Shown here in pieces: positions 27,638 to 51,296 of a stretch of DNA of 64,000 bases. The position numbers and the translations under genes are program-made. The notes below the pieces were generated by a model that saw only the letters and a list, made by a program, of their open reading frames with translations, was not told the origin of the DNA and ran no database searches. Within the stretch, counting starts at the first letter, position 1. Every line of letters starts with the position of its first letter. This stretch comes from Spirochaetia bacterium (GTDB lineage: Bacteria > Spirochaetota > Spirochaetia > CAKZLE01). The stretch covers positions 384,001-448,000 of the forward strand of contig OY782041.1 in NCBI GenBank assembly GCA_963677595.1, in the 5' to 3' direction.

Positions 27638-29005
27638 TTACATATACTTCTTCAGCTCTTCCACGAGCTCGTCGGTACCCGGTATGATCGACGGGTACTT
27701 CAGCTCCCCGTTGATGTAGATACTCGGGAGGCAGGAGATCTTCAGCTTCTGTATCCTCGCGATATCATCGGGGTTGTTGTACTGGTAGGAGGCGAAATCG
27801 ACCGCATCGCCGAGCACCTCCTTCGCAGACTTCGCCGCTGCCTCCATGTAGGTGCAGGCGGCACAGGCTACCGGGTCGAGCAGGAAGGCCTCCATCAGGG
27901 GCTTCTCAAGGTTCTCGTAATCAGGCAGCGCGACTTCGATATCATCGAAGGAGGTGCCTGAATGGTTCTCGACGAGCTTACGTACCACCTCGGTCTCCTG
28001 GACAGCCTGAGCTACCGCTACGGCGTTCTGGGGCGGTACATCATAGGGCATGTCGCAGCCCGGGGCAACGATCAGGTTCTTCGTAGTCGAGAGCCCTGCC
28101 GCAGAAAGCCCGTCGAGCATGTCGACGGTGTACTTCATGTTGTCCTGCTGGTTGCCGAAGAGCATGACCGTGGTCAGCGGGATGTTACCCCCGAGCACGA
28201 CGTTGTGGCGGTCGGTGATCTTCTTGGCCTCGATCATACTGACGTTCTCGTCCACGGCGATCGCATCGGGACCGCACTGGCACATCAGGTCTATGTTGTG
28301 GATGGCATTCCCGCATACGAAGAAGGAGCTGTAGGCTCCCTTCTCCCGTATATAGGTAAAGAGCTTCGTATAGGGTTCGAGGAAGAACTGGGTGAAGTGC
28401 TTCGGCGAGATCTGCGACATGAGCGGGTCCACCGGCACGATGATGTCCATCTCCTCCTCGATGTAGAAATCAGACATCCGGCAGGCGACTTCGGTAGTAT
28501 AGGCAAGCAGTTCATGGAGGGCATCCGGGTTCTTGATCATGTCCATGAAGATCTTCGTCCCCCGCAGGTGGGAAGCCAGCGTGAAGGGACCGCAGAAGAG
28601 CCCGTAGAGAGCCGTGTGGTCCCCCACTGCCTCCTTGAACCGCCTCATGACGTTCCAGACCATGGGGAGCCTGCCGTCATCCTTCTCGATCATCTTCTCA
28701 GGGATCTTCGATTCCTTCTTCAAGGGATGGGAAACGACTGAGGGGAGGTTCTTCTCCACCCACTTCAGCTCGCAGCCGAGGATCTCGGCCTCGAGCTGCA
28801 GGTCGAACATGACCGTCTGCCCGTCCGGGCTGTAGAGCCTGTTCACCTCGAGCAGCGATTCCAGCAGCTTGTCCTCATCCTGGAGCACCTCCAGGGCATT
28901 GTATCCCTTCGTCTTCCCCGCATGGATCCCTGCATAGGGAACCCATGCAGGCCGCGGGACCTCCTTGTGATTCAGGATGTCAATGATCAACTCTTTTCCA
29001 TTCAT
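27638..29005 (-). CDS. URO-D/MtaA-CmuA (MT2-like) methyltransferase-family protein with a C-terminal thioredoxin-like domain
   Basis: EAEILGC, GPFTLA, QISPKHF, FVCG, GNIP, VAPGCD; C-terminal CAAC…LPSIYINGE. Confidence 0.75.
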   Translation of the reverse strand: MNGKELIIDILNHKEVPRPAWVPYAGIHAGKTKGYNALEVLQDEDKLLESLLEVNRLYSPDGQTVMFDLQLEAEILGCELKWVEKNLPSVVSHPLKKESKIPEKMIEKDDGRLPMVWNVMRRFKEAVGDHTALYGLFCGPFTLASHLRGTKIFMDMIKNPDALHELLAYTTEVACRMSDFYIEEEMDIIVPVDPLMSQISPKHFTQFFLEPYTKLFTYIREKGAYSSFFVCGNAIHNIDLMCQCGPDAIAVDENVSMIEAKKITDRHNVVLGGNIPLTTVMLFGNQQDNMKYTVDMLDGLSAAGLSTTKNLIVAPGCDMPYDVPPQNAVAVAQAVQETEVVRKLVENHSGTSFDDIEVALPDYENLEKPLMEAFLLDPVACAACTYMEAAAKSAKEVLGDAVDFASYQYNNPDDIARIQKLKISCLPSIYINGELKYPSIIPGTDELVEELKKYM

Positions 29006-29033: not shown

Positions 29034-31910
29034 TTATCTGACCTTGCCCAGTGCCCGGAGGATCTTCTCCGGGGTGATGGGCAGTTCTCTCATCCAGACG
29101 CCTACGGCATCATGGATGGCATTCGCGATTGCCGGAGCGGCGCCGTTCATGGCGATCTCCGATACGGACTTGCTCCCGAAGGGGCCGAAGGGGTCCGTCG
29201 TCTCGATGAGCTTCACCCTGAAGTCCCCGGGGATGTCCCCGATCATCGGGGCACCGTAGGACTCGAGGTCCGTGGTGAGGCAGGTCCCGTCAGCTGCCAG
29301 CTTCACCTCCTCATAGAGGGTATGGCCGATGGACTTCATGACCGCCCCGTAGATCTGGCCCTCTGCCAGTTCCGGGTTGATTGGTGTCCCGCAGTCCTGC
29401 AGTGCGTAGTACTTTTGGACGGTGACCTTCCCGGTCCTCCGGTCCACAGCCACCTGCACGAAGTGGGCACCGTAGGGGAAGGATGCATCGTCACAGGTGA
29501 ACGAGGCATGTCCCACGAGCTGGCCGATGCCGTCCCCACCATGGGTCGCCTGGGCGATCTCCCGGAAGGAGACTGAACCGCTGCGTCCGTTCACCTGCTC
29601 ATTGAACGCAAAAGTGAGATCGTCTGCGGGTTCGCCGAGCAGCGCTGCTGCAGATGCGAGGATCTTCTTCCGCAGCTCCTCCGCGGCGTTCCTGACGGCA
29701 CCGCCGGAGAAGAAGGTGCCGCTCGATGCGAAGGCACCGGTATCGAAGGGTGTCTGGTCGGTATCGCCGGAGATGATGGTGATGCGTGAGGGATCCATGT
29801 TGAGGATCTCGGCAGTCATCTTGACGCTGATGGTGTCGAGCCCGGTACCGAGGTCGGCCCCGCCCGAATGGATGATCACCGACCCGTCATTGAGCAGCTT
29901 CACCGAAGCGTTCGACAGGTCGAGCCCGGGGAGTCCTGATCCCTGCTGGATCAGCGCCATCCCCTTCCCGATCTTGATATCGATGTCACCACTGGTCTCT
30001 TTCTTTCCCCACTCGATCATCTTCGCGCCTTCTGATACCGCACGGGCAAGCCCGCAGCTCTTGATTACAGCAGGGGCTCCTTCCCGGCCCTCACCGAGGC
30101 ACCTGAGGATCTCGAGGGTGACACCCTCATCGACCCGGTTCTTCTCCACGACTTCGAGCATATCGATTCCGAGTGCATCGGAGAGCTCGGCGATGGCCAT
30201 ATGGAGTGCATAGTTTGCCTTAGGAGCACCATAGCCCTGGTAGGCTCCCGTCGGCATGATGTTCGAGTAGAAGACATTCACGTCAAATGCGATGTTGTCG
30301 CTCAGGTAGAGCGGCAGCGACTTGGAACAGCCGTTCATCGGGACGGTAAGGCAGTGGTTGCCGTACGGCCCGGTATTAGCCTTGAGGTCCATGTACATGG
30401 CGGTGAACGTCCCGTTCTTCTTCGCCCCGAGCTTCACCCGTATCTTCATCGGAAAACGGGAGACACTGTTGGTGTACTCCTCCTCCCTGGTGAAGTGGAA
30501 GAGGACCGGCTTCCCAGTCACCCAGGTGGCGAAGGCGCAGACATCCTCGAGGAGGATCTCCTGCTTGGAACCATAGCCGCCCCCGACTCGCTCCTTGATG
30601 ACACGGATCCGGTTCTCATCGATCCCGATCACCTTGGAGACGATCCTTCTCACGAAGAACGGGACCTGCGTCGAGGCATGGATGACGAGCCGGTCGGACT
30701 CCATCCTGGTATAGACGATATGGGTCTCGCAGGGAGTGCACTGGAACTGGCCGGTCTCATAGGTCCGCTCGATGACGGTATCAGCCTCGGCGAACCCCTT
30801 CTCGATGTCACCGATAGCCCCGGAGACGCTCGCAGCCTTGTTCACATGAGGGTCTGCCCCGATGGGGAACTGGATCTCGATCCTCCCGTCGCGCGGGTCG
30901 GCTCCCCGGTTCTTCTCCTCAAGGTCCTCAGGTGCCCCGACGGCATAGGAGACCTTGGCATTATGGACGATGGGTGCTCCCGGTGCTGAAGCCTCGTCGA
31001 TGGAGAACACAGGTTTGAGCACCTCGTATTCCACCATGATCGCATCAAGTGCGGCGATGGCATGCTCCTCGGTATCAGCCACGACGGCAGCTACCCGGTC
31101 GCCCACATGGTGGAGCTTCTGGGAGAACATGCGCCGGTCATAGGGGGAGGGTTCAGGGAACCCCTGTCCTGCAGGTGTGTAGTAGGTATCGGGGACGTTC
31201 TTGTAGGTGAGGACGAGCTCCACTCCCGGCTTGGTCTCAGCGACAGAGGTGTCGATCATCTTGATATAGGCATGGGCATGGGGACTGTGGAGCATCTTCA
31301 TGACCAGAGATCCCGGGAGCACCATATCCTCGACGAAGGCACGCTCCCCCCTGACGAGTTTCGCGCCGTCGACCTTCCGGTGTGCCTTGCCCACATACTT
31401 CAGGTCATCCCTGAACTCATCGCTCACGCGCATGACGGCATCAGAGTCCTTCATCCGCCTTTTTGCGAGTTCCACGGCATTGAAGAACTGCTCATAGCCG
31501 GTAGCACGGTTGTAGAGACCTGAGAGGGCATCCTTGATCTCTTCCCGGGTCGGGTCCGGCCTCCTCTCGAGCAGTTCGGTCAGCAGCAGCGCCGCTGCCG
31601 GTGCATTGTAGCCCGACTGGACGATCCCGGCATCGATCATGGCTGACTGCACGGGACTCAAGGGCCGGTCCATCGAGGCGAGGGACTCAGCCGTCCTGAT
31701 CTCGTGCCCGTCTATCTGGGCCGTGACCATCAGACCGGCATTCACCGGCCTGCCGTCAAAGAGGATCGTGTCAGACCCGACGAACCCACGGTGGTTGTCG
31801 CTGTCGCGCACGGAGAGCATCCCCAACCGCTTGAGGAACTCCTGCAGGTTCTCACCCGCGGATGCCTGTTCATTCCGGACTATGCCATTCAGGGTAAAAC
31901 TCACTTTCAT
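29034..31910 (-). CDS. xdhD: XdhD-like xanthine-dehydrogenase-family molybdenum subunit (N-terminal Fe-S-like domain without Cys)
   Basis: SVRDSDNHRGFVGSD and VQSGYN resemble E. coli XdhD; GQGFPEPSPYD, GGGYGSKQE, AYQGYG, GAFASSGT, GPFGSKSVSE; start at ATG 31910 with an ATGA overlap. Confidence 0.85.
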   Translation of the reverse strand: MKVSFTLNGIVRNEQASAGENLQEFLKRLGMLSVRDSDNHRGFVGSDTILFDGRPVNAGLMVTAQIDGHEIRTAESLASMDRPLSPVQSAMIDAGIVQSGYNAPAAALLLTELLERRPDPTREEIKDALSGLYNRATGYEQFFNAVELAKRRMKDSDAVMRVSDEFRDDLKYVGKAHRKVDGAKLVRGERAFVEDMVLPGSLVMKMLHSPHAHAYIKMIDTSVAETKPGVELVLTYKNVPDTYYTPAGQGFPEPSPYDRRMFSQKLHHVGDRVAAVVADTEEHAIAALDAIMVEYEVLKPVFSIDEASAPGAPIVHNAKVSYAVGAPEDLEEKNRGADPRDGRIEIQFPIGADPHVNKAASVSGAIGDIEKGFAEADTVIERTYETGQFQCTPCETHIVYTRMESDRLVIHASTQVPFFVRRIVSKVIGIDENRIRVIKERVGGGYGSKQEILLEDVCAFATWVTGKPVLFHFTREEEYTNSVSRFPMKIRVKLGAKKNGTFTAMYMDLKANTGPYGNHCLTVPMNGCSKSLPLYLSDNIAFDVNVFYSNIMPTGAYQGYGAPKANYALHMAIAELSDALGIDMLEVVEKNRVDEGVTLEILRCLGEGREGAPAVIKSCGLARAVSEGAKMIEWGKKETSGDIDIKIGKGMALIQQGSGLPGLDLSNASVKLLNDGSVIIHSGGADLGTGLDTISVKMTAEILNMDPSRITIISGDTDQTPFDTGAFASSGTFFSGGAVRNAAEELRKKILASAAALLGEPADDLTFAFNEQVNGRSGSVSFREIAQATHGGDGIGQLVGHASFTCDDASFPYGAHFVQVAVDRRTGKVTVQKYYALQDCGTPINPELAEGQIYGAVMKSIGHTLYEEVKLAADGTCLTTDLESYGAPMIGDIPGDFRVKLIETTDPFGPFGSKSVSEIAMNGAAPAIANAIHDAVGVWMRELPITPEKILRALGKVR

Positions 31911-32704
31911 GACAGCACCTCCCTGCATGCTTCGGCACATGCGATCACGGTCCGTGCCGCAATGTAATTCTTATAGGCTGCAGTCCCTGCTGCATCACTG
32001 ACAAGCAGGTTGAGTTCCCTGAATGCCAGATCGAACTCATGGACTGAATGGTCCTCTCTCTTGGTGAGGAGTTCCTCGATGAGCGGCAGGCGCATCGGTC
32101 TCTCACCGAACCCGGTCGCGACGAGTCTGGGATCCAGGCACTTCCTGTCAGCAGAGAACCACATGGAGAGGGCGAAGCTCATGATCACCTTCGAGGCACT
32201 GGACTGCCGAACACGCCTGACAGCGCTTGCCTTCGAGTTTATGGGGATGAGGACTGCCGTGATCAGGTCGCCCCTGCTGGAATCCACGTACTCCTCGACC
32301 GTGACGGTCGACCCGTCGGCAAGTTCGACTCTCGCCCCGAGCACGATCAGGCTCGGGACCAGCGCTGAATGGGTCCAGCATGCCGCTATATTCCCCCCGA
32401 CCGTGGCCATGTTCCGGACGCTGCGCGAGTAGATCCCCCGGGCAGCCTCCTTGATCACCGGCATGACCAGGGTCGAGTCGATGAGTTCCTGCAGCCTGAC
32501 GGCAGCACCGACCCTCAGGAGACCTCCCTCCAGGGATATCCCCCCCAGCCCCAGCTCACCGATCGATATCACGTTCGTATAGGGGGAAGCTGTATCCATG
32601 TGGTTGATGCTCGTCCCCCCGGCATAATAGCCGGCATGACTGTAGTGTTCGTACAGGGAGACCGCCTCCTCAACCATCTGAGGTTGTTTAAAGTTCCTAA
32701 TCAT
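31907..32704 (-). CDS. ygfM: YgfM-like FAD-binding subunit of a molybdopterin oxidoreductase
   Basis: YYAGGT, RNMATVGGNI; translationally coupled to xdhD as in the E. coli ygfM-xdhD pair. Confidence 0.75.
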   Translation of the reverse strand: MIRNFKQPQMVEEAVSLYEHYSHAGYYAGGTSINHMDTASPYTNVISIGELGLGGISLEGGLLRVGAAVRLQELIDSTLVMPVIKEAARGIYSRSVRNMATVGGNIAACWTHSALVPSLIVLGARVELADGSTVTVEEYVDSSRGDLITAVLIPINSKASAVRRVRQSSASKVIMSFALSMWFSADRKCLDPRLVATGFGERPMRLPLIEELLTKREDHSVHEFDLAFRELNLLVSDAAGTAAYKNYIAARTVIACAEACREVLS

Positions 32705-32775
32705 CCAACCCTCCAAATCCTTTTCATATCTGTCCCCTGATTGTAGCCTGAATCTCCGTGAACTGCCATGGGCCT

Positions 32776-33447
32776 TTACTGTGCATCGCTCAAATAATCG
32801 AGCAGCGAGACCTCCTCACCGGGCTCCTTCACGATCACCTCATGGTCCCACTCCTCGGTGAAGAGTTTCAGCATGAGGCGCTGGTCTCCCGTGATCTCAT
32901 GGTACTCAAGATCGTAGAGTTCACAGAATTTCCTGGCAAGCTCCTTGTAGGGAGTCGTATCATACTCCCCGGTATCCACGACGGCTGCCCGCTCGTAGTG
33001 TTCCAGGACCATCCTGGTATACTGCTGCGCCAGCTCCTCCCCGTACCGTTCGATGTACTTGTCATACTCGAGCAGGTGGTAGGTCCCGTCCTCGGACTCG
33101 ATGAACCGTTTCGTGAGGAAGAGCGTCCCGATCGCCTCGTTCCGGTGTTTCTCGAAACAGGTTTGGGAGCCGCAGAAGAGGGCTATGCAGTCGTGGATCC
33201 TCGGGAGTATGAGACGGTGGTGCGCAGAGGTGAGCCCCACCGTCGCATTCGAGCAGAGACCGTAGCCGAGCACGATCGTATCCCCCTTGCCGGGAATCCC
33301 GTCGATCACCTCCTGGAGGTGTGACCTGAGGAGGTCCGGCTTCTCATGCAGGGAGAAGGATTGTCTCATGATGATCATATCATCCGGGATGATCGACCTG
33401 GATTCTACCAGGATCGTATCACAGATGATGAGGTAGGTCTTGCTCAT
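32776..33447 (-). CDS. DUF1638-domain protein (associated with corrinoid methyltransferase systems)
   Basis: LHEKPDLL, VLGYGLCSNATVG, PRIHDCIALFCGS. Confidence 0.75.
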   Translation of the reverse strand: MSKTYLIICDTILVESRSIIPDDMIIMRQSFSLHEKPDLLRSHLQEVIDGIPGKGDTIVLGYGLCSNATVGLTSAHHRLILPRIHDCIALFCGSQTCFEKHRNEAIGTLFLTKRFIESEDGTYHLLEYDKYIERYGEELAQQYTRMVLEHYERAAVVDTGEYDTTPYKELARKFCELYDLEYHEITGDQRLMLKLFTEEWDHEVIVKEPGEEVSLLDYLSDAQ

Positions 33448-33517: not shown

Positions 33518-34213
33518 CTAGATGTTCAATGCCCCGATGATGATCGGGTCTGCCGCACCGCCTGCGGCTCCCCTGGTCACCAGCTGCTTGCAGAGGTCCA
33601 CGCATTCACTTGCGGTGTTCGAATACCCGTCTGCCTTGATCATCGTCGTCCACTGCGGGGTGACAGGTCCTCCTCCGAGGATGACCTGGTACTTCTCCCG
33701 CATGCCCATGGCACCGAGGGTCTCGATGAGTTCCTTCTGGTACGGGAGGCTGGTGGTGATCAGGGTCGAGCAGGCGATGATGGTCGCGTTCTCACGCTGT
33801 GCAGCATCGATATACTCCCTGACGCTCACGTCGATCCCGAGGTCGATGACCTTGAAGCCGTTAGCCGAGAGGATCGCCTTGACCAGGTTCTTCCCGATAT
33901 CGTGGTGGTCACCAGCCATCACGCCGAGCACGACCGTGCCGGAATCTGCACCTGCACCACCGTCTTCCCGGATCTTCGCAAGGAGCACGTCCATCGCCAT
34001 GGTGGCAGCGTCACCGGCGAGCATCAACTCAGGGAGGAAGGCCTCCCCGTTCTCGAACTGCTCACCCATCAGGTCCATCGCAGCCTGGATGCCGCCCCGG
34101 ATCATCTCGAGGGGGTCTATGCCCTCCGCGATACTCTCCTGGGCGATCTCGAGTGCGTCATCCTCTTCACCTTCGATGACTGCATCATATAGTCTTTTGA
34201 TCAATTCGCTCAT
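33518..34213 (-). CDS. Cognate corrinoid (B12-binding) protein, MtmC/MttC-like
   Basis: N-terminal cap (FLPELMLAG), GDHHDIGKNLV (DxHxxG), VIDLG, ILGGGPVT, ADGY. Confidence 0.9.
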   Translation of the reverse strand: MSELIKRLYDAVIEGEEDDALEIAQESIAEGIDPLEMIRGGIQAAMDLMGEQFENGEAFLPELMLAGDAATMAMDVLLAKIREDGGAGADSGTVVLGVMAGDHHDIGKNLVKAILSANGFKVIDLGIDVSVREYIDAAQRENATIIACSTLITTSLPYQKELIETLGAMGMREKYQVILGGGPVTPQWTTMIKADGYSNTASECVDLCKQLVTRGAAGGAADPIIIGALNI

Positions 34214-34248
34214 ATCTGTATTTCTCCTAAACTCTTGTTACTTCGTGA

Positions 34249-35634
34249 TCAGATTGCATCAAGCGGCAGGCCGAACTCTTTCGCCCTGGTCCGTACTTCG
34301 TTGTATGCAGCCTCTGCTTCCGGCAGCGGGCGGAAGTTCTTGAGGTCCCACACTTCCTGTACCGGCTTCCCGATGTTCGGGGTCTTTATATTCGCCTCGA
34401 ATTCCGGGAGGAACTCATTAGCCAGGTCGTTCACGGCCGAGAGGTCCATACCGGATGCAGCATGGGCAACCTCAGCACACCATCGGCAGTCGAGGGGTGA
34501 GAGGTAGTCATTGAACTTCCCGCCTGCTGATCTCGGGCCTGTCGAGAAGGATGCACCTGAAGCGGCGATGATCGATACACCTACGAGCGTCTCGTAGAGC
34601 AGTTCCTTCGTTCCCGGACCCGACACCTGGTTCGCGATACCGTGGGTCAGGAGATGGGTGTTCCTGCTCAGAGCCTGGTGGGTCATGCTCAATGCCCAGA
34701 GGCCTTCCCGGTTCACGTTGGAGAGGTACCTGATGTCGTAGAGCTCCCCGCCGCCGACGGTCGAGAAGAGTACGGCATACTGGAGCAGTGACGCCGCGAT
34801 GCTCGAGATGACCGCACCCTCGGGAGGTCCCGGCATCCCGCCGATCATTCCCGGAGAACCGGCGAATACCATACCGCCCATGGCGAGGGTATGTACTACC
34901 TTGTGCATGGTCTGGTTGTTGATCTTCATCTCCGAAGGATAGAGGATCAGTGAGAGGTCGGTGGTATAGAAGTTGTCCCGTGTCCCATAGCAGAACTGGC
35001 CGAACTCGGTGACCGCGGAGATGTTCCCGATACCGGGCATACCTTCTCTTCCTGCTTTTCGCCGGAGCACCCGGTGCATACGTCCCTGCTCATAGCAGAG
35101 CAGGGTCTCTGACGGGTCACCGGGGAGGGCCTCCAAGCCGTTGATCGCAGTGAGCGACCCGCTCTCGAGCAAGTCGACCTGCGGCTGGCGTGCGATCCCT
35201 TCAGTGATCCAGGGCCATGCCTCTTCCGACATGGTGATCCCCAGCGATGACCCGAAGAGCATCGGGGTGGGGTCTGAGGGGGTACGTGACTTCATGATCC
35301 GCTTGTCGTGCCCGAACCCGAGCTCGACCTCTGACGGTGCGAGGTGGAGCGTGGTCACGAGCTCCTCTTCATCTATCTTGATGATCCTGTCGCGTGCCTC
35401 GTTGAGCATGCCGAGTTCCAGGGCAAGTTCGAAGCCTGCCTTGTAGAACTCATCGGCAAGCTCCATATCGGTGTTGACAGGGTTCTCCTTGTCAACGGTC
35501 TTCTGCAGGTTGTACTTCTTCAGCATCGACTTGACAGCCTTGGGGACTCGCTTCACATCCCAGTCATGGGCGCTGCAGTACTCACCTTCTCGAGACCTGC
35601 GCAGGATCTCGGTAAGATCAGGTTTCTGTTTCAT
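34249..35634 (-). CDS. Monomethylamine:corrinoid methyltransferase (MtmB)-family protein lacking pyrrolysine
   Basis: Collinear with Methanosarcina MtmB as I recall it: GEYCSAHDWD, TDMELADEFYKAGFEL, DRIIK, AGREGMPG-I-G, EMKIN, GGMPGPPE, SGPGTKELL, AEVAHAASG, GKPVQEVWD. Start at ATG 35634 with RBS AAGGAG; no in-frame TAG. Confidence 0.85.
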   Translation of the reverse strand: MKQKPDLTEILRRSREGEYCSAHDWDVKRVPKAVKSMLKKYNLQKTVDKENPVNTDMELADEFYKAGFELALELGMLNEARDRIIKIDEEELVTTLHLAPSEVELGFGHDKRIMKSRTPSDPTPMLFGSSLGITMSEEAWPWITEGIARQPQVDLLESGSLTAINGLEALPGDPSETLLCYEQGRMHRVLRRKAGREGMPGIGNISAVTEFGQFCYGTRDNFYTTDLSLILYPSEMKINNQTMHKVVHTLAMGGMVFAGSPGMIGGMPGPPEGAVISSIAASLLQYAVLFSTVGGGELYDIRYLSNVNREGLWALSMTHQALSRNTHLLTHGIANQVSGPGTKELLYETLVGVSIIAASGASFSTGPRSAGGKFNDYLSPLDCRWCAEVAHAASGMDLSAVNDLANEFLPEFEANIKTPNIGKPVQEVWDLKNFRPLPEAEAAYNEVRTRAKEFGLPLDAI

Positions 35635-35766
35635 ACTATTCTCCTTAACCAAATGTTTGACTTCTTCATCTCAGGAGGCAGCGGCCTCCCGTGTTTATCC
35701 TCGCATACGGCTTCCTGTCGTGCAGTATCGTATATGAGCTATCCATCTTCACCAAACAAGCTCCTG

Positions 35767-35795
35767 GTTTTAGACTTGTCCCGGACAAGGTTGCG
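35767..35795 (-). promoter_or_regulatory. Shared leader motif, copy 1 (upstream of the MtmB homologue)
   Basis: Plus strand GTTTTAGACTTG-TCCCGGA-CAAGGTTGCG; near-identical flanks at 42605-42635. Confidence 0.5.
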
Positions 35796-35847
35796 AATGC
35801 TTGCAGGTCGGCCTACGCCTTGACGTCGATCTCCCTATCCTACCTCC

Positions 35848-37704
35848 TTACTCATTCGCTGCACCCTCGAAGTACATATTCATAGCCAGGTCCCTGGAAA
35901 AACCCTTCCGACCTGACAGGTCGATGATCCTCATCTCATTCCTCATGGTCTCGCACCGGTCCCGGAACTCCCTGCTCAGCAGGGCAGAGACGGCGCTCCT
36001 GCCCGAAGTGTTCCCGACACAGACCACCCGGTCGGCAAGCTGCGGCGGGATCAGACCGATCTCCGCAGCACTCGATATCCTGATGCGGCTGCCGAAGCCC
36101 CCGGCGATGTAGAGACGGCTGACCTCATCAGCCGTGATCCCTGCTTCATCGAGGAGCGCCTCGATCCCGGTACGGATCGCTGACTTGGCAAGCTGGATCT
36201 CCCTGATGTCAGCCTGGGAGAGGTAGACGGTCTCCCCGGAGATGGTGAAGGCAGGTTTCCCCTTCACTTCAGCCATCCTCGAGGATAGCGCATGTTCACC
36301 TCTGGCAAAGCGTCCTTTCCGGTCGACGAGTCCTTCCCTGACGAGGAGTGCGGTCACATCGAGCACCCCGGATCCGCAGACGGCTGCGGGGACCTGGTCG
36401 TGGATGGTCGTGAACCGCAGCGCTTCCCCGTCATAGGATACACTGTCGATCGCCCCGGAGACCCCGCCTGACCCGCAGGAGAGGTTCGCCCCCTCGAAGG
36501 CAGGGCCGGCGGCAGTCGAACAGGCGAAGAGTCCTGCTGGACTTTTCAGGACGATCTCCCCATTGGTCCCGATATCGACGAAGAGGGAACACTCATCAGC
36601 TGTGTCCAGATGGACCGCAGCAGCCCCCCCCACGATATCGGCCCCGATGTACCCAGAGGCACTCGGGAGCAGGTAGACGGAACATCCTTCAAGTTCGCTG
36701 AAGAGATCCCGGATGATCTGAGAGGAGGTGAAGACCGGATTGAACGGTACCCTGCTGATGCTGCCTGCATCGATCCCGAGCAGGAGATGCAGCATGGTGG
36801 TGTTCCCTGCGACGGCACAGGAGGTGACCTGCCCGGTCATGATCCCGTTCCGCCCGCAGAGCTCCAGGATCATCTCCTGCAGCTGTTCGGTGATCACACG
36901 TGCGAGCTCTTCAGAGCCTTTTGCCTTTATCAGGGTATAGCCGATACGGGCGATGACATCGGCACCCGCGATGTGCTGTGCGTTCAGGGCCGATTCGGTA
37001 TCGATGATCTCCCCGGATGAGAGGTCCACCAGGTAACATGCTACGGTAGTCGTCCCGATATCGACTGCGATACCGTAGAATCGTTCCACGCCCTCAGCAG
37101 GGCAGACTGAGATGACAGTCCCGTCGCAGATATGTGCCCAGATCCCTGCCGGCTGCTTCATGTCCATGAGATGCCGCATCATGACCGGCAGCTGGTGGAG
37201 CACGACAGGAGAGACATCCGCCACGGCGATACCGCACTGGTCAGACAGGGCTTCTATGACCCGCAGGGCACCATCTCGGTTATCGTCGAAGGTCGGGACA
37301 CTCATCATGACACGGAAGCTCTCGACAAGCCGTCCCTGCAGGTGGTCCTCAGACTCTCCTGAGAACCCGGTCTCGACCTCCATGATGCGCTGTTCTGCAG
37401 CTTCGGCAATGGTGAGGTCACCCTCAGCAGTCGCATAGCAGGCAAGCCTGATACCCGCGATGATATCATCCTCACTGAGGTGCTGTTCCTCCTGGGGTCC
37501 CATCGGGGAGACTTCACCGGAGATGATGCGGATCCTGCACTTCCCGCAGGTCCCCGCTCCCCCGCAGGGACTCGTATACCCGAAGGCCTGTCCGCTGTCT
37601 GTTATCATGCTGCTGATCACGGTATGGAGATCGGTCCCGAACGCTGCCTTGGTAGTGAGTTTCTGGGGTATCATGGTTATACTGCAGCTGCGTGCCTCAG
37701 ACAT
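35848..37704 (-). CDS. Reductive activator of corrinoid enzymes (RACE; ASKHA/DUF4445 with an N-terminal [2Fe-2S] domain)
   Basis: CGGAGTCGKC…RLAC, VDIGTTT, GADVIARI, AGNTTM, DIGTNGE, TAAGPAFEG, CGSG, QLAKSA, AGGFG. Confidence 0.9.
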   Translation of the reverse strand: MSEARSCSITMIPQKLTTKAAFGTDLHTVISSMITDSGQAFGYTSPCGGAGTCGKCRIRIISGEVSPMGPQEEQHLSEDDIIAGIRLACYATAEGDLTIAEAAEQRIMEVETGFSGESEDHLQGRLVESFRVMMSVPTFDDNRDGALRVIEALSDQCGIAVADVSPVVLHQLPVMMRHLMDMKQPAGIWAHICDGTVISVCPAEGVERFYGIAVDIGTTTVACYLVDLSSGEIIDTESALNAQHIAGADVIARIGYTLIKAKGSEELARVITEQLQEMILELCGRNGIMTGQVTSCAVAGNTTMLHLLLGIDAGSISRVPFNPVFTSSQIIRDLFSELEGCSVYLLPSASGYIGADIVGGAAAVHLDTADECSLFVDIGTNGEIVLKSPAGLFACSTAAGPAFEGANLSCGSGGVSGAIDSVSYDGEALRFTTIHDQVPAAVCGSGVLDVTALLVREGLVDRKGRFARGEHALSSRMAEVKGKPAFTISGETVYLSQADIREIQLAKSAIRTGIEALLDEAGITADEVSRLYIAGGFGSRIRISSAAEIGLIPPQLADRVVCVGNTSGRSAVSALLSREFRDRCETMRNEMRIIDLSGRKGFSRDLAMNMYFEGAANE

Positions 37705-37710: not shown

Positions 37711-38652
37711 TTACCGTTCCTCCCTGAAGTAGGGGACGCCGAGGCTCTGCGGGGCATTCCCCCGGGCCTTTCGCCTCATCGAGTCGAGCACCAGGACGAT
37801 GATCGTCATGACGTAGGGCAGCGAGTCAAGGACGTAGATCGAGACCGGCAGGTCGAACTGCTGCAGGCGGAATCCCACGATATTGAGCCCGCCGAAGAAG
37901 AGCGCACCGAGGAACGCCCGGTAGGGGTTCCATTTGGAGAAGATGACCAGCGCCACAGCGATCCATCCCCGCCCGGAGATGATCGAGTCCTGCCATGCAG
38001 GTACATAGATCAGGGAGAGGTACCCTCCGGCGAGGCCGCAGAGCACCCCGCCGATGGCAAGGTGGATGTAGCGGTACTTGATGACCGAGATCCCGAGGGA
38101 GTCTGCAGCCCTCGGGTTCTCTCCGACCATCGACCCGTTCAGGCCGTATCGTGTCTTATAGAGATAGATCCCGACGACCACGATCAGCACATACGTGATA
38201 TAGATCATGTAGTCCTGGTTGAAGAGGATCTCACCGATGACCGGGATATCACCCAACAGGGGGATCTTCACCTTCACGAAGGTGGAGATGATCCTCTCTG
38301 GGGCCCTCGTCCCGATGATCGGCGTCCCGATGAAGCCGGCGAAGCCGGTACCGAACATCGTCAGGGTGAGCCCGGTGACGATCTGGTTGGCCCGCAGGGT
38401 GATGGTGACGAAACCGAAGATCATGGCCCCGAGCACACCGGCGAGGGCCGCTGCGATGAATGACAGGAGTGGGCTCGCTGTCTGGAGGGATACCATGAAC
38501 CCGATGATCGCACCCATGTACATCATACCCTCGACACCGAGGTTGAGCGAACCGCTCTTCTCGGTGACGAGCTCCCCCATCGTGGCGAGGAGGAGCGGGG
38601 TCCCGGCAACCACGGCGGCCCCGAGAAAACAAACGAACCAGTTCAGGTCCAT
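37711..38652 (-). CDS. Nucleoside/purine ABC transporter permease (NupC/YufQ-like)
   Basis: EKSGSLNLGVEGMM, GENPRAADSLG, GRGWIAVA, LPY. Confidence 0.9.
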   Translation of the reverse strand: MDLNWFVCFLGAAVVAGTPLLLATMGELVTEKSGSLNLGVEGMMYMGAIIGFMVSLQTASPLLSFIAAALAGVLGAMIFGFVTITLRANQIVTGLTLTMFGTGFAGFIGTPIIGTRAPERIISTFVKVKIPLLGDIPVIGEILFNQDYMIYITYVLIVVVGIYLYKTRYGLNGSMVGENPRAADSLGISVIKYRYIHLAIGGVLCGLAGGYLSLIYVPAWQDSIISGRGWIAVALVIFSKWNPYRAFLGALFFGGLNIVGFRLQQFDLPVSIYVLDSLPYVMTIIVLVLDSMRRKARGNAPQSLGVPYFREER

Positions 38653-38653: not shown

Positions 38654-39730
38654 TCATGCGCCTCCCTTTGCTGAAGTCACTCGCTTCGATTCCCGGATCA
38701 CCCGGTACTTGAGGAAGAACTCGCTTCCCAGGACGAAGAAGAGGATGAGTCCCTGCAGCAGCGATGCTGCTGCCTGGGGTATCTGGAACACGGTCTGGAT
38801 ATAGGATCCTCCCTCCACCATGACGGCAAAGAGGAAGGAGACGACCAGGATGGCTATGGCATTGAGCTGGCCGAGCCAGGCGATGATGATCGCGGTATAC
38901 CCTACCCCGTTGCTTACATCTATACTCAGGGTCATGTTCACCCCGGAGACCTGGATCATACCGACGATCCCGCAGATCCCCCCGCTGATGAAGAGGGTCC
39001 CGAGGATGATCTTCGAGGTAGGCATGCCCGCATAGCGGGCTGTCGCCTCGTTCTCCCCGATGACCCGGATCTCATAGCCTCGTTTGGTGTAGTTGATGAA
39101 GAGGTAGATGAGGACGACCAGCACGGGTACGAGGATGATCCCGATATGGACGCCGAACAGCTTGGGCAGCTGGGCGTTCTTCACGAGGTTCGGGATCTTC
39201 GGGTAGCCGAATGCGTGTTCATCCTTCCAAGCCACGTACTGCAGGTAGGTGATCCACTTCAATGCCACGTAGTTGAGCATGAGGGTGAGGATCGTCTCAT
39301 TGGTCTTGAACTTCACCTTGAGGAATGCCGGGATCAGTGCCCACAGCCCGCCGCCGACGAGTCCCGCAGCCACCATGAGCGGCAGCAGGATGATCTTCGG
39401 GAGCGACTGGAAGTTGAGGCCGACATAGGTGGCGGCAGCTGCCCCCATCATGATCTGCCCTTCCCCGCCGATATTCCAGAACTTCATCCTGAAGGATAAG
39501 CCTATCCCGAGGGCAGTCAGGGCATAGGGGATGGTCCTCGTGAGGGTCTCCCGGACACGGTAGCCGGATCCCAGGCCCCCGTCTATCATGGAGGCGTAGA
39601 CCTCGAACGGGTTATGCCCGAGGAAGAGCAGGAGGAATCCCGAGAGGGTGAATGCAAGAAGGATCGCATAGACGCGCACGCGGATCTTCTTGGCCATGGA
39701 ACAGGTTTCAAGCGGTACGATCCTAGCCAT
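38654..39730 (-). CDS. Nucleoside/purine ABC transporter permease (NupB/YufP-like)
   Basis: WNIGGEGQ, NETILTLMLNY, GENEATARYAG. Confidence 0.9.
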   Translation of the reverse strand: MARIVPLETCSMAKKIRVRVYAILLAFTLSGFLLLFLGHNPFEVYASMIDGGLGSGYRVRETLTRTIPYALTALGIGLSFRMKFWNIGGEGQIMMGAAAATYVGLNFQSLPKIILLPLMVAAGLVGGGLWALIPAFLKVKFKTNETILTLMLNYVALKWITYLQYVAWKDEHAFGYPKIPNLVKNAQLPKLFGVHIGIILVPVLVVLIYLFINYTKRGYEIRVIGENEATARYAGMPTSKIILGTLFISGGICGIVGMIQVSGVNMTLSIDVSNGVGYTAIIIAWLGQLNAIAILVVSFLFAVMVEGGSYIQTVFQIPQAAASLLQGLILFFVLGSEFFLKYRVIRESKRVTSAKGGA

Positions 39731-41261
39731 TGCTGCACTCCTCCCCGATCGTCGTCATCAGGACTCCCAGTTCATTCTTCGTGATCTCGTCAGGGTTCGC
39801 GATCCCTGAGACCTGTCCGCAATAGAGGACCATGACCCGGTCGCAGACTTCCAGCAGCAGGTCCAGATCCTCTGCCAGGAGCAGGACCCCGGCCCCTCTG
39901 GCCTTCTGCTCATTGAGCAGTTCGATGACCTTGTGGGTGACCCCGAGATCGAGTCCCCGTACGGGGTAGGAGGCGATGAGGACCTTCGGGTCACTCATGA
40001 TCTCACGCCCGATGAGTATCTTCTGCAGGTTGCCGCCCGAGAGAACGCTGATCGGCCGGTCGATCCCGGGATGCATGACATCGAGGGATTCGACGAGCCG
40101 TTCGGTCATCTCGTAGGCACGCTTCGAGTCGATGAAGATCCCCTTGCCTGCATGGTAGTCACGGAGCATGACGTTGTCGACGAGGCTCATGCTGCCGACC
40201 AGTCCCATCCCGAGCCGGTCCTCAGGCACGAAGTTGATCGGGACGACACCCTGCCGGAAGATCTCACTCGCGCTCTTGCCTGCGATCTCCTTCCCGTTCG
40301 CCTTCACCGACCCGGAATCTATCTTCTGCAGGCCTACCAGGGCCTGGCAGAGCTGTTTCTGGCCGCTCCCCGATACCCCGGCCACGCCGAGGATCTCGCC
40401 GGCATGGAGGTCGAAGGAGACGCCCCTGAGCTGCCGCATCGCTGCGGCATCATTTACGTGGAGGTCACTCACCTCCAGGACGACGTCTCCAGCGGGGACC
40501 CTCAGCCTCGGGAACTCCATCTTCATGGACTTCCCGACCATGATATCAGCGAGCTCCTTCTGGGTCGTCTCTGCCGTACTGAGGGTCTTCACGACCCTTC
40601 CCTTGCGCATGATGGTGACACGGTCGCTGATCTCCATGACCTCATACAGCTTATGGGTGATGATGATCGCTGTCTTACCAGCATCACGCATAGTCCGGAT
40701 GATGGAGAAGAGCCGTTCGGTCTCCTGCGGGGTCAGTACGGTGGTTGGTTCATCAAGGATGAGGATCTCAGCCCCCCGGTAGAGGACCTTGAGGATCTCC
40801 AGTGTCTGCTTCTGCCCGACGCCCATGTCCGAGACATAAGCTTCCAGGTCCAGAGAGAGACCTGTCTCCCGGCAGATCTCAGCGATCCGTTTACGGCAGC
40901 CCTTCCTGTCAAGGAAGAGTGAGCCGTTCGGCCCCGCTATGATATTCTGCCAGGCCTTCATGGCATCCACCAGCTTGAAATGCTGGTAGATCATGCCGAT
41001 GCCTGCATCGATGGAGTCTTGGGGAGAGCCGAAAGTCTCCTCGCTGCCGTCGATCATGATGGTCCCGGCATCGGGGGTGTAGATCCCTGAGAGGATGTTC
41101 ATCAAGGTACTCTTGCCCGCCCCGTTCTCGCCGAGGATGGCATGCACCTCTCCCCGCCTGATGTCCAGGTCCACATCGTCATTGGCCTTGAGGGGACCGA
41201 ATTCCTTGGTGATCCCCCGCATGCTGATCACGACTTCATTACTCACCATATACTCCTGCAT
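39723..41261 (-). CDS. Nucleoside/purine ABC transporter ATP-binding protein (NupA/YufO-like)
   Basis: [42 protein letters not shown]. Confidence 0.9.
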   Translation of the reverse strand: MQEYMVSNEVVISMRGITKEFGPLKANDDVDLDIRRGEVHAILGENGAGKSTLMNILSGIYTPDAGTIMIDGSEETFGSPQDSIDAGIGMIYQHFKLVDAMKAWQNIIAGPNGSLFLDRKGCRKRIAEICRETGLSLDLEAYVSDMGVGQKQTLEILKVLYRGAEILILDEPTTVLTPQETERLFSIIRTMRDAGKTAIIITHKLYEVMEISDRVTIMRKGRVVKTLSTAETTQKELADIMVGKSMKMEFPRLRVPAGDVVLEVSDLHVNDAAAMRQLRGVSFDLHAGEILGVAGVSGSGQKQLCQALVGLQKIDSGSVKANGKEIAGKSASEIFRQGVVPINFVPEDRLGMGLVGSMSLVDNVMLRDYHAGKGIFIDSKRAYEMTERLVESLDVMHPGIDRPISVLSGGNLQKILIGREIMSDPKVLIASYPVRGLDLGVTHKVIELLNEQKARGAGVLLLAEDLDLLLEVCDRVMVLYCGQVSGIANPDEITKNELGVLMTTIGEECSNG

Positions 41262-41334: not shown

Positions 41335-42411
41335 TTACTCGATAGAACCGATGACGCCGTCAACGAGGAAGCTCATGCCGAGCTTGTCGCCGTCGCTCAT
41401 GACTTCGCCGTCTGCCAGTACGAGGTTGCCCTGGTTGTCATACAGCGGGCCTGCGAAGACCTCGAAGGAACCGTCGATGATCTTTGCCTGTACCTCATCC
41501 ACGATCGCCTGTGCCCCTGCAGGAGCGTTCTTGCCGAGCGGTGCGAGCCGAACGACATCGTCTTCCATGCCGCCCCAGTAGTTGCTTGCGTCCCAGGTGC
41601 CGTTCATGACTTCCTGAGTCACTGCCACATAATAGGGATCCCAGTTCCAGTAGGGAGAGGTGAGGCATGCTTCAGGTGCAGCTGCGTTCATGTCCGCATG
41701 GTAGCCGACACCCCATACACCCCTGGCCTCTGCTGCCTGGAGGTTCGCAGGAGCAGTCTGGTGCTGGGCGATGACGTCACAGCCCTTGTCGATGAGTGCG
41801 AAGGTTGCTTCCTTCTCGTTCGGCGGGTTGTCCCAGTCAAGGGTCCAGGTCACTTCGACCGTCACGTCTGGGTTCACGCTCTTTGCACCAAGGGTGAAGG
41901 CGTTGATTCCCCGGACGACTTCCGGGATACTGAAGGCTGCGATATACCCGAGCTTGTTGGTCTCGGTCTTGAGTCCTGCCACGATACCGGAGAGGTAACG
42001 AGCCTGGTAGATCTTTCCGAGGTAGTTGACCGCATTCTCTGTCTGCATGTATCCGCCGCAGTGGAAGAAAGCGACTTCCGGATGCTCTGCAGCGACTTCA
42101 AGCATATAGTCCATGTAGCCGAAGCTGGTAGCGAAGATCATCTTGGCACCCTGGGCGATCATGTCCCTCATGACTTTCGCACTCTCCTGGGTGTTGGGGA
42201 CGTTCTCTTTGTAGAGGGTCTCCACGCCGAGCTCCTTCTCAATAGCCAGCCTTCCTGCATTGTGCTGCTGGGTCCAGCCCATGTCACCGATAGGTCCGGT
42301 GAAGACGAAACCGACCTTGAACACCTCTTCTTTCTTCTCTTCCTGAGCCCCGCCCGCGAACAGCGGAGACAGCACCAGCAGGATCGCTAAGAGACATAGC
42401 ACTTTCTTCAT
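41335..42411 (-). CDS. BMP-family ABC substrate-binding protein (purine/nucleoside type)
   Basis: GPIGDMGWTQQH, FATSFGY, IPEVVRGINAF, DVIAQHQ, WGGM, FAGPLYD; signal peptide …FAGGAQE. Confidence 0.9.
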   Translation of the reverse strand: MKKVLCLLAILLVLSPLFAGGAQEEKKEEVFKVGFVFTGPIGDMGWTQQHNAGRLAIEKELGVETLYKENVPNTQESAKVMRDMIAQGAKMIFATSFGYMDYMLEVAAEHPEVAFFHCGGYMQTENAVNYLGKIYQARYLSGIVAGLKTETNKLGYIAAFSIPEVVRGINAFTLGAKSVNPDVTVEVTWTLDWDNPPNEKEATFALIDKGCDVIAQHQTAPANLQAAEARGVWGVGYHADMNAAAPEACLTSPYWNWDPYYVAVTQEVMNGTWDASNYWGGMEDDVVRLAPLGKNAPAGAQAIVDEVQAKIIDGSFEVFAGPLYDNQGNLVLADGEVMSDGDKLGMSFLVDGVIGSIE

Positions 42412-42604
42412 ACCCTAAACTCCTTACGTGTAGCCAAAATATTCTCATCCGCCATACAGGCGGCCTTGAGTCTATCCAAAAGACATCCACATACACCGCT
42501 GAATCCACGGCTATGGACATACCTGCTACCACACAGGTCTGATACTGAGACGGATTCTGTTCGTTAACATTGATCCACACTAGATGTGCGACAAGGAACT
42601 GGCT

Positions 42605-42635
42605 GTTTTAGACTTGCAAAGCCTGCAAGGTTTCG
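42605..42635 (-). promoter_or_regulatory. Shared leader motif, copy 2 (upstream of the BMP gene)
   Basis: Plus strand GTTTTAGACTTG-CAAAGCCTG-CAAGGTTTCG. Confidence 0.5.
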
Positions 42636-42997
42636 TGGTTACTGTGTATACATAAAGTGCTCATGTATCAGTTGACCATAATAGATTCTGAACCATATCG
42701 TACCATCTGCTCAATAATTATGCAATCTTTTTCATTATATTACATTTTGTTGTCTGATTTTACGATTCAGTACCTACAGGATGTCATGGTGTTCCCACCA
42801 ATCATGTCTTATCTTAAATAAATGCAATTTTCATGCCATCAATTATATAGAGCATATTATCAACAAAACGGGGAGATTTTGCAACAATTTTTAGATGATA
42901 ACGAACAATATTCTCATGATGTTGCAGAACAAAACCTATCCTGCAACATCACGCATCACGTAAATGTAGGATTCCGTCACAGAATCCTACATGGATG

Positions 42998-46320: not shown

Positions 46321-46887
46321 AACTATCCCTCCTTCAAACAGACAAATTCACTCACAATCTACGACTCATGATTTTGTCACATATTGCGAATCCCAGCGGA
46401 CGCATATGGGTATGTAATACACCCCTACAACCAAATAACATGTATGAGGAGTGCTGGTCGGATGACGTGATCATGCGTGCATGACTATCCCCGTAAGTTG
46501 GGTGATAGATTCAGACGTAATGAGTATGTATTTTGCAGGAGGCGAACCCAACTTATGTTAGTAGAATATTTTTTCCGAATGTCTTCCGAATTCTTTCCTA
46601 AATCATATCAGATCCAAATTGAGCGTCTCTGAACAGCTTGCATATCTCAATCCGATATATTAGTTTGCCTACTGAAATCTCCCAATTGTTGACTCCTCTA
46701 TCTGTATAAGCTACTATGGATTACGGAGATTGGATTTAGTTCAATGAAAGGGAAGAGGCAGGAGGAGGCTCCTGCCGAGTACCACTCCACAAGCAAAACG
46801 CATCCATTTCGGGTGCGTTTTCTCATATCTAAACCGACGCACGAGAGTCGCCTCAGAACGCTCCGACCACCGAATAGGGTCATTAAC

Positions 46888-48563
46888 CGATTCATCCCCG
46901 CAGGTGCGGGGAACGGGACTCAATCTCGCCCCTTGCTGACTCAATATACGGTTCATCCCCGCAGGTGCGGGGAACAGTTTCACATATTCAAGATTTTTAT
47001 ATGCATGATCGGTTCATCCCCGCAGGTGCGGGGAACAGATCAGGTATGTCCAGGAGCAGACGAACTACCGCGGTTCATCCCCGCAGGTGCGGGGAACAGG
47101 TTCTGGACGAGCAGGTCGGTGAGCGCAAGAGCGGTTCATCCCCGCAGGTGCGGGGAACAGACCATCTTCATAAGTTCCGTCAATCTCAAGAACGGTTCAT
47201 CCCCGCAGGTGCGGGGAACAGGTGCAGCGCTACAGTTAGCTATTTGACTACAACGGTTCATCCCCGCAGGTGCGGGGAACAGTCCGCATCACGCTTGATG
47301 TCGATCCCCAAAATCGGTTCATCCCCGCAGGTGCGGGGAACATTCGTAAATGTGTCCAGGATCGGTCTCAAACTACGGTTCATCCCCGCAGGTGCGGGGA
47401 ACAGTCCGCATCACGCTTGATGTCGATCCCCAAAATCGGTTCATCCCCGCAGGTGCGGGGAACATTCGTAAATGTGTCCAGGATCGGTCTCAAACTACGG
47501 TTCATCCCCGCAGGTGCGGGGAACAGTACCCGGCTTTCTCCATACCTTCCATACAGTCCGGTTCATCCCCGCAGGTGCGGGGAACAGACAGCTACTATGC
47601 AGATATTGCCTTCGCATCTCGGTTCATCCCCGCAGGTGCGGGGAACAGGTCTTTGTATGATCCGAGTTCACGAATGGCAGCGGTTCATCCCCGCAGGTGC
47701 GGGGAACAGAAGGTGTACTCCCGTTTCGGCTGCAGTATTATCGGTTCATCCCCGCAGGTGCGGGGAACAGAGCTCTTTGCCATACTGCAGCGTATGGGCG
47801 ATCGGTTCATCCCCGCAGGTGCGGGGAACAGGATCTCACACTGATCTGTGAGAGAGTTGTACCCGGTTCATCCCCGCAGGTGCGGGGAACAGGCGGCGGC
47901 AGGAAAGATGGAAAACTTTGCAGACGGTTCATCCCCGCAGGTGCGGGGAACAGGCGGTCACTGAGGAAAAGGACAAGTATACATCCGGTTCATCCCCGCA
48001 GGTGCGGGGAACAGTGCACCCATTCAGGGGCCTGCGTGAACAGGTTCGGTTCATCCCCGCAGGTGCGGGGAACAGGAAAACTCATCCTCAATACCGCAGT
48101 ACTTGGACGGTTCATCCCCGCAGGTGCGGGGAACAGAATCTCTCAGTTCACGAACTCATGCAAGGTTGCGGTTCATCCCCGCAGGTGCGGGGAACAGGTA
48201 TTCTACGGAGTACCTAAGGTTCAGGAGAGCGGTTCATCCCCGCAGGTGCGGGGAACAGTTGATTGGCTCGTCGATGACTGCGGTAAGTTCCGGTTCATCC
48301 CCGCAGGTGCGGGGAACAGGTAAAGATCATCTTTGCTCTTGTATGGGTAATCGGTTCATCCCCGCAGGTGCGGGGAACAGTACGAGCGTACGTACTCGTA
48401 CTACAATCTCGGCGGTTCATCCCCGCAGGTGCGGGGAACAGCTTTGTCCCCGCGAGTGCGTTCTGTTCATATTCGGTTCATCCCCGCAGGTGCGGGGAAC
48501 AGACCTCAGCCGAAGAATCTGATCATCGTTCTGGCGGTTCATCCCCGCAGGTGCGGGGAACAG
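46888..48563 (-). CRISPR. Type I-E CRISPR array: 28 repeats (29 nt) and 27 spacers (32 nt)
   Basis: Plus-strand repeat CGGTTCATCCCCGCAGGTGCGGGGAACAG with an exact 61-nt period. The degenerate terminal repeat is at 46888 and the AT-rich leader is on the cas2 side, so transcription is on the minus strand. Confidence 0.98.
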
Positions 48564-48703
48564 ACTTACGAGTAAATTATACTCATATAATGAGATAAAT
48601 CAACTTAAATTTTCTACCATGATTTTTCTATCGGTTACTATCATATGCACGCTTTAAATAGCTATGTCAAAAACGGGGCGTGTCTTACTCAAACAGGTTG
48701 AAT
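48564..48703 (-). promoter_or_regulatory. CRISPR leader
   Basis: AT-rich stretch between cas2 and the first intact repeat. Confidence 0.7.
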
Positions 48704-49907
<1,204 letters not shown>

Positions 49908-49917
49908 GTTTGCTTTC

Positions 49918-51294: not shown

Positions 51295-51296
51295 AA

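Follow-up and report, generated by a model that had tools for sequence, protein, structure and literature searches.

Pyrrolysine (Pyl) occupies position 202 of MtmB from Methanosarcina barkeri, on a strand of the barrel (PMC9842639). The first Pyl-free member of the family with a function is MtqB of Methanococcoides methylutens Q3c, described in 2026 with rates of 42 nmol/min/mg for choline, 37 for tetramethylammonium and a weak 11 for monomethylamine; in that description MtqB branches near the Pyl-containing MtmBs, mtqB adjoins the pyl operon, and the remainder of the 1061-sequence MtmB tree is labeled “unknown function” (PMC13044021). Here we describe a Pyl-free MtmB homologue (34249–35634, minus strand) encoded in a 64,000-nt stretch of a Spirochaetia bacterium genome (GCA_963677595.1, contig OY782041.1, positions 384,001–448,000 of the forward strand; hereafter the window). 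The genome is a single 4.33-Mb contig and 95% complete. The gene lies in an operon together with a predicted purine-base transporter, a urate reductase homologue and two copies of a conserved leader RNA. We infer each step of what is probably its function: anaerobic, B12-dependent N-demethylation of imported methylpurine bases, with the ring passed to reductive urate breakdown and the methyl group unloaded by a UroD-family protein, likely onto a thiol. The evidence in hand consists of gene content, fold, residue changes, neighborhood enrichment, and the conservation and covariation of the RNA.

An MtmB homologue with isoleucine at the pyrrolysine position

The mtmB open reading frame (ORF) runs from ATG to TGA with zero internal stops and encodes 461 aa. 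It scores 219 bits against the Pfam MtmB model (PF05369; cut-off 25), covering model positions 3–450 of 450, and a phmmer search of the PDB returned M. barkeri MtmB as the sole match (1l2q/1nth and 1tv2; E 1e-42). An AlphaFold2 model built from 76 sequences has a mean pLDDT of 92.9, with residues 201–220 at just 63–69, and superposes on 1l2q with a TM score of 0.93 and an rmsd of 2.0 Å; against the MttB family, the best match has an E value of 6e-9 and TM scores are 0.45–0.54. The protein thus shares with M. barkeri MtmB the TIM-barrel fold, length, Pfam family, and an adjacent corrinoid protein and activator. It differs in overall sequence (25% identity), in five substitutions (Pyl202 to Ile, Glu229 to Leu, Glu259 to Gly, Gln333 to Ile and Tyr335 to Asn), and in its bacterial host, which has no detected PylS, PylB or CUA tRNA.

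Residue 202 is encoded by an ATC codon (35029–35031, minus strand), and Ile202 stands opposite X/Pyl202 of M. barkeri MtmB in a gap-free alignment block. Among the query and the 120 listed of its 282 homologues, position 202 is Ile in 113 of 121 sequences, Val in five, Met in two and Asn in one; the residue is therefore not a sequencing slip. A public contig, possibly the source or a near strain, has 14 differences over 34200–36000, none of them in codon 202. Nine of the 52 clade members have Trp in the Pyl column of the tree alignment; they may form a subclade whose pocket is filled, or the alignment may be wrong locally. Short MtmB fragments were considered as hidden Pyl-containing members and rejected, as the break never falls at position 202 in the 13 representatives inspected.

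Glu229 and Glu259 of MtmB, which we take to act in Pyl activation, are both replaced in the PDB alignment. Column 229 is Leu in 52/52 clade members, and column 259 is Gly, Asp, Ala or Asn, never Glu. Residues N335, R368, D300 and Y299 are near-invariant in the clade, and E157 and E297 are mostly conserved.

A search of the whole 4.33-Mb genome for PylS and PylB gave no match at cut-off (PylC and PylD were not searched), and the 49 tRNAs listed by ARAGORN include none with a CUA anticodon. TAG is the stop codon of 722 of the 2382 ORFs longer than 300 aa, and no in-frame TAG is present at position 202. Judged from its residues, the protein is an MtmB-fold enzyme unable to use a Pyl adduct.

An earlier interpretation of this DNA, made from the letters alone (the sequence-only reading), had described a full-length MtmB homologue with Ile202 and no pyl genes in the window, and had proposed the Pfam alignment and AlphaFold superposition as checks; the results above agree with it on all of these points. 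It had also held that the enzyme cannot apply the Pyl mechanism to monomethylamine. The loss of the mechanism stands, given Ile202 and the missing glutamates, but strict exclusion of monomethylamine as a substrate does not follow, because MtqB weakly demethylates it without Pyl. Its statement that the substrates of Pyl-free MtmBs are uncharacterized is likewise overtaken by the activity of MtqB on tetramethylammonium and choline (PMC13044021).

Pyl-free MtmBs are also common: a profile search yielded 1126 clusters at 50% identity (E ≤ 1e-3). With MtqB already described and the family this large, the absence of Pyl does not by itself make an MtmB novel. The query belongs to a separate clade (52 sequences, at least 50%; support 1.0). 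Like the query, MtqB has a cognate corrinoid protein, and it offers a precedent for a substrate occupying the place of the Pyl adduct; its pocket is of a Met/Cys/aromatic type. It differs in coming from a methanogen, in acting on tetramethylammonium and choline, and in being encoded beside a pyl operon, whereas the query clade is found in bacterial, predicted purine-catabolic operons; the clade is provisionally set apart from MtqB by the latter's published description.

Other Pyl-free MtmB clades of Spirochaetota (loci L052–L058 and L066–L085) have fixed neighborhoods of their own. One is accompanied by an SSS symporter, a 2-hydroxyacid dehydrogenase and a class I/II aminotransferase; another by choline-kinase-like genes, making these candidate MtqB-like choline systems. 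Some of these loci carry two to three tandem MtmB paralogues. The genome studied here also encodes a second Pyl-free MtmB (G000:C1:4025618–4027087; L001, L087), with Leu at 202 and 28% identity to the query; an ECF-type transporter is adjacent, and neither a corrinoid protein nor the leader RNA is found nearby.

Operon partners and neighboring genes

The operon lies on the minus strand with intergenic gaps of -8 to 213 nt. In order, it encodes a Bmp-family binding protein (41335–42411), an ABC transporter ATPase (39723–41261), two BPD_transp_2 permeases (38654–39730 and 37711–38652), a RACo/RamA-type reductive activator of corrinoid protein (35848–37704), the MtmB homologue, predicted to be an N-methylpurine:corrinoid methyltransferase I, a MtxC-like corrinoid protein with a TAG stop (33518–34213), a DUF1638 protein (32776–33447), a YgfM-like FAD subunit (31907–32716), the Mo/Fe-S subunit XdhD, also called YgfN (29034–31940), and a UroD/MtaA-like putative methyltransferase II with a C-terminal thioredoxin-like CxxC domain (27638–29005). 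The RACo and B12-binding genes that adjoin mtmB were identified by profile matches, and their pairing with MtmB as cognate partners is predicted from gene order.

The transporter and the Mo-enzyme point to purines. The binding protein has as its best PDB matches 3s99 and the guanine-binding protein AtzT (E 1e-78). AtzT binds guanine at 110 nM through Tyr45, Ser97, Phe98, Glu165, Trp194, Asn218 and Asn220 (PMC6834077), to which W46, S96, F97, E164, W193, H217 and T219 correspond in the window; the stacking pair and the Ser/Glu pair are kept, and the two asparagines are replaced. The Asn220 column holds Thr or Ser in 9/9 spirochete operon proteins and Asp in the genome's other close Bmp, so that T219 could mark a lost hydrogen bond where the methyl group would sit.

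XdhD–YgfM reduces urate to 2,8-dioxopurine, in a reductive urate pathway that, as described in the text available, has no methyl-removal module (PMC12507026). The operon XdhD scores 1317 bits against TIGR03313 (cut-off 1102), is 56% identical to the Escherichia coli urate reductase and 65% identical to a housekeeping XdhD elsewhere in the genome, and keeps Glu606. Its YgfM-like partner is 30% identical to E. coli YgfM and scores 143 bits against TIGR03312, below the cut-off of 241. The main pathway is encoded separately in a YgfK–SsnA–YgeY–XdhD–YgeW cluster, with all five proteins over cut-off, as is an 8-oxoguanine deaminase. The operon XdhD is therefore a second copy, a specialized duplicate; D450E and Y726F are common to all five operon copies aligned and distinguish them from both the E. 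coli and housekeeping enzymes, and these changes may lie near the substrate. In all, the genome encodes about 11 large subunits of Mo-hydroxylases, along with 8 amidohydrolases of related type and 8 Bmp proteins (G000:C1:4105000–4170000 and elsewhere), which suggests broad N-heterocycle catabolism.

We compared the neighborhoods of 49 related loci from four phyla (Spirochaetota, Chloroflexota, Acidimicrobiia and Verrucomicrobiota/Kiritimatiellae) with those of 35 control loci carrying other MtmB clades of the same phylum (L073 was left out because it overlaps L072). A Bmp protein, Mo-hydroxylase or purine-type amidohydrolase is encoded at 40/49 clade loci vs. 3/35 controls, and two or more of these at 30/49 vs. 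0/35, although the contrast overstates independence, since the case loci themselves supplied the marker models and most of the controls belong to one family. When only loci of at least 12 kb are counted, the figures for any marker are 34/36 and 3/27. Of random 21-kb windows of the genome, 8% contain at least one marker and 2% at least two. DUF1638 is present at 7/49 of the loci. Among the 26 of 38 neighboring amidohydrolases that were scanned, 12 exceed the 8-oxoguanine deaminase cut-off and one that of SsnA.

Five Acidimicrobiia-type loci contain six Rieske ORFs, and for two of the three tested the best matches are the methylxanthine N-demethylases NdmA and NdmB (E 1e-49 and 1e-53). NdmA and NdmB require O2 and release formaldehyde. 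The net reaction predicted for the MtmB system, purine N-demethylation, is the same as theirs (6ICK, 6ICL), and their homologues adjoin clade members in Acidimicrobiia; the MtmB system is predicted instead to be O2-independent and to keep the methyl group on the corrinoid. Between two and four MtmB paralogues occur in 18/49 clade loci, as would be expected because position-specific demethylases would need several. The sequence-only reading had taken the neighbors to indicate N-methyl heterocycles; this holds, and the marker enrichment, XdhD, the AtzT-type Bmp protein and the NdmA/B-like neighbors narrow it to purines.

A second, distant MtmB lineage (25–31% identity to the query) is found in the same purine-gene loci (L015, L017–L020, L029, L030, L034, L038 and L044), where MtmB genes, as many as four per locus, are interspersed with those for Mo-hydroxylases and deaminases. 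What looked like a Mo-hydroxylase–MtmB fusion in L016 proved to be caused by a 100-N gap in the assembly.

A conserved leader RNA

Comparison of upstream regions revealed a conserved non-coding block that was absent from the sequence-only reading: a covarying leader RNA without a match in Rfam. Its core consists of a P1 strand, GNNACC, a P2 hairpin, GUYUAAAAC, about 5 nt, and the closing strand P1'. The RNA occurs twice in the operon, both times on the minus strand. Copy 1 (42589–42651; 56 bits, a training member) is in the leader of the first operon gene, that of the Bmp protein, and copy 2 (35751–35811), found by pattern, is in the 213-nt spacer immediately 5' of mtmB. A model trained on first copies alone (R1) gave five weak extra matches in 1.5 Mb, all immediately 5' of mtmB, and a relaxed pattern gave 18 matches in 1.52 Mb, 17 of them within these leaders.

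Several features indicate that the conserved element is a structured RNA. The alignment comprises 22 sequences that are mutually related and from which the structure was itself drawn; in it, 84% of the cells pair and two-sided changes number 50, values as high were obtained in 0/500 shuffles, and slid controls reach at most 46% paired. P1 averages 7.8 pairs vs. 5.6 in shuffled sequences (shuffle maximum 6.5), P2 is variable, closed by as little as a 3-nt loop or extended by a paired insert of up to 25 nt, and its third pair is either G-C (12 of the 21 distinct cores) or A-U (the other 9). On the sense strand, G-U pairs outnumber A-C by 25 to 6. A DNA operator was considered and is disfavored by the variable paired insert and the G-U bias. 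A third hairpin (P3), included in models R1 and R2, is missing from second copies and was dropped. Two further hairpins were noted beside copy 1: one just 5' of it (42650–42690, minus strand; L003, L005, L007–L009) and a short one just 3', both kept in spirochete first copies and not in second copies.

No Rfam 15 family matches at its gathering score, nor is there a meaningful match at E ≤ 10. The motif is absent from the literature found, in a search that did not cover subscription papers or motifs outside Rfam. Like the purine, xanthine (NMT1), SAM and SAH riboswitches of Rfam 15, the RNA has a leader position, a two-stem aptamer-like core and invariant joining strands. Comparative analysis thus finds what is generally looked for in a riboswitch, namely a conserved, covarying structure in the 5' leaders of related genes. 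The closing strand P1' could, by its complementarity, pair with the Shine–Dalgarno (SD) region of the next gene in all eight leaders of the Anaerolineae type, which would give an overlap with an anti-SD strand as in those riboswitch families. The complementarity and the pairing pattern fit an ON switch, and we regard the leader RNA as a candidate ON riboswitch whose ligand could name the substrate of the operon. Promoter and terminator scans gave results at chance level, and an expression listing included no RNA-bearing genome among its entries.

The distribution of the RNA follows the methyltransferase. Of 101 related genomes, seven carry it, twice each, and the same seven carry the query MtmB clade (these positives are largely training data); eight with only distant MtmBs have none. 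A pattern scan of metagenomes returned 48 matches, of which seven are true copies: three before Bmp genes, three before corrinoid protein genes, and one with little downstream DNA, whose identical twin precedes a corrinoid protein gene. The other 41 were rejected as chance matches, as the P1 flanks are missing and none lies 5' of operon genes; weak model matches at G000:2243574, G650 and L035 were not accepted either. In Anaerolineae the RNA also precedes corrinoid–mtmB genes, with five strong matches in 67 genomes of an Anaerolineales family, all before the corrinoid gene. Among the genomes and metagenomes scanned, no confident copy was found outside these leaders; a further 150 genomes drawn from the G481 order yielded none under strict filters. 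The RNA thus tracks methyl-transfer genes (mtmB or the corrinoid gene) and not the housekeeping purine cluster.

Elsewhere in the window, a CRISPR-Cas locus of type I-E occupies positions 46700–57340; its array lies at about 46.7–48.3 kb, and its Cas3 is split into two ORFs, HD (56606–57340) and helicase (54736–56631).

Proposed pathway and alternative substrates

In the proposed pathway, the Bmp-type ABC system would import a free methylpurine; candidate substrates are methylxanthines, methylurates, methylguanines and methyladenines. RACo would hold the corrinoid protein at Co(I), and the purine would sit in the part of the barrel that Pyl202 has vacated, held by N335, R368, D300 and Y299 with E157 and E297, while Co(I) would take the N-methyl group by direct displacement. 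The nearest analogy to this step is N5-methyl-tetrahydrofolate activation in MeTr/MetH. The operon XdhD–YgfM would then act reductively or oxidatively at C6 of the ring, whether still methylated or not, and its product would enter the genome's pathway for reductive urate breakdown. Binding of the substrate to the leader RNA would close P1 and free the ribosome-binding site.

The methyl group would be unloaded by the UroD/MtaA-like protein onto sulfide, homocysteine or its own CxxC motif. This protein is closest to MtaA, and the ESM Atlas returned only “UroD family”. Because the genome contains no stand-alone folate methyltransferase and no acetyl-CoA synthase (ACS), transfer to a thiol through this protein is likely. 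More fully, no stand-alone pterin methyltransferase, MtrH, ACS or MttB was found in the genome, whose sole pterin-binding domain is within MetH; it has no Wood–Ljungdahl sink, and a gene for methylenetetrahydrofolate reductase (MTHFR) adjoins metH. In some relatives, a pterin methyltransferase with MetVF could serve instead, as a pterin methyltransferase is encoded at 9/49 related loci, some with MetVF, and three of these nine also have a UroD-family gene. MtaA-like proteins have been tied to methyl-sulfur metabolism, and the type 1 mlp cluster of Kountz and Balskus comprises at least two MtaA-like proteins, a corrinoid protein and Ram (PMC10418091); with its single UroD/MtaA-like gene, the operon falls outside that definition. 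The genome also has two further UroD-family paralogues (G000:C1:298509–305642, L088, and 1914015–1917411, L092), 59% and 53% identical to group members. One is part of a RACo–PocR/AraC–corrinoid protein–UroD–CobW cluster that includes no methyltransferase I.

A number of observations weigh against the methylpurine pathway. The substrate is assigned through guilt by association, and the sole characterized non-Pyl MtmB uses quaternary amines (PMC13044021). The window's operon contains no deaminase, and the operons of the Marispirochaeta loci L008 and L009 lack XdhD–YgfM. Thirteen of the 26 scanned amidohydrolases exceed no cut-off, and one of the three tested Rieske proteins matches SxtT-type hydroxylases first and Ndm proteins second. 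The UroD protein has Phe in place of the His of the MtaA HxC motif, so its role as a methyltransferase is uncertain. As for the RNA, just 11/49 clade loci carry it, and a search of four other genomes with clade members did not find it; single sequences mostly fold no better than shuffles; pairing of P1' with the SD dominates the computed ensemble of only four of the eight Anaerolineae-type leaders; and neither this switch nor a terminator emerged from the analysis of the two copies in the window. Finally, in one sediment study, about 85% of caffeine remained intact under anoxia (2026 preprint).

Both Mo-hydroxylases and Bmp proteins have roles with pyridines, pterins and triazines too, and the same corrinoid chemistry could act on a non-purine N-methyl heterocycle such as trigonelline, N-methylnicotinamide, a methylpyrimidine, an N-methylpterin, creatinine or N-methylhydantoin. 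Mo-hydroxylases and cog0402-type amidohydrolases act on many N-heterocycles, a creatininase is encoded in L013 and UbiD genes in L030 and L038, and AtzT itself also binds a triazine (PMC6834077). We nevertheless consider such a substrate unlikely, as the operon's Mo-enzyme is specifically an XdhD with Glu606, nearly half of the scanned deaminases exceed the 8-oxoguanine deaminase cut-off, and NdmA/B-like neighbors exist.

The methyl group might instead sit on sulfur, oxygen or an exocyclic amine of the purine (as in 2-methylthioadenine or O6-methylguanine), or the substrate might be a nucleoside such as methylthioadenosine. Many neighboring deaminases score best, below cut-off, for 5'-deoxyadenosine deaminase, and the link of MtaA-like proteins to methyl-sulfur metabolism would suit an S-methyl group. 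This is improbable: members of the MtmB family are known to remove methyl groups from nitrogen, the Bmp protein belongs with free-base binders of the AtzT type, and genes for a nucleosidase, phosphorylase or kinase are missing from the window's operon.

The pathway could also run in reverse or supply methionine, with the RNA sensing SAM, SAH or homocysteine and the operon scavenging methyl groups or methylating a purine. The missing Wood–Ljungdahl sink and the association of the RNA with methyl-transfer genes would be consistent with this; we give it a slim chance, because the only SAM/SAH match in Rfam is a 10-nt, wrong-strand fragment (E 7.7) and the predicted ON logic fits substrate induction. 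Slimmer still is the chance that the enzyme shares the substrates of MtqB, namely choline, tetramethylammonium and, weakly, monomethylamine, or other quaternary or simple methylamines, with purine genes co-located for another reason. MtqB, the only non-Pyl MtmB with measured activity, would support this; against it, MtqB groups near Pyl-MtmBs (PMC13044021) and the query in its own clade, the query's 219 bits on the Pfam model lie below the 241–342 of control clades (full-length matches), and choline-kinase neighbors typify those clades and not this one.

N-demethylation of methylpurines thus remains the function we favor. No corrinoid enzyme for purine N-demethylation was found in the literature searched. 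In the portion of the 2026 preprint available, caffeine N-methyl carbon reaches methane in anoxic sediment, with no tested enzyme named, and Anaerolineae are among the taxa enriched. Tentatively, and with considerable doubt, the clade may represent the first O2-independent, B12-dependent N-demethylation route for methylxanthines, methylurates and methylated RNA or DNA bases, widespread in sediment Spirochaetota, Anaerolineae and Acidimicrobiia, with paralogues for individual ring positions, a new class of methylpurine-binding riboswitch and, in this organism, delivery of the methyl group to a thiol and not to folate.

Methylated purines from RNA turnover and caffeine from wastewater both reach anoxic sediments. 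If a function were established for this clade, it would be just the second known among the many Pyl-free MtmBs and would be relevant to what pyrrolysine took the place of, or what took its place. Through the leader RNA, the question of substrate can be approached cheaply, as the ligand of a 60–80-nt RNA could name the substrate ahead of oxygen-sensitive enzymology; if the interpretation is true, the RNA itself would add a riboswitch class.

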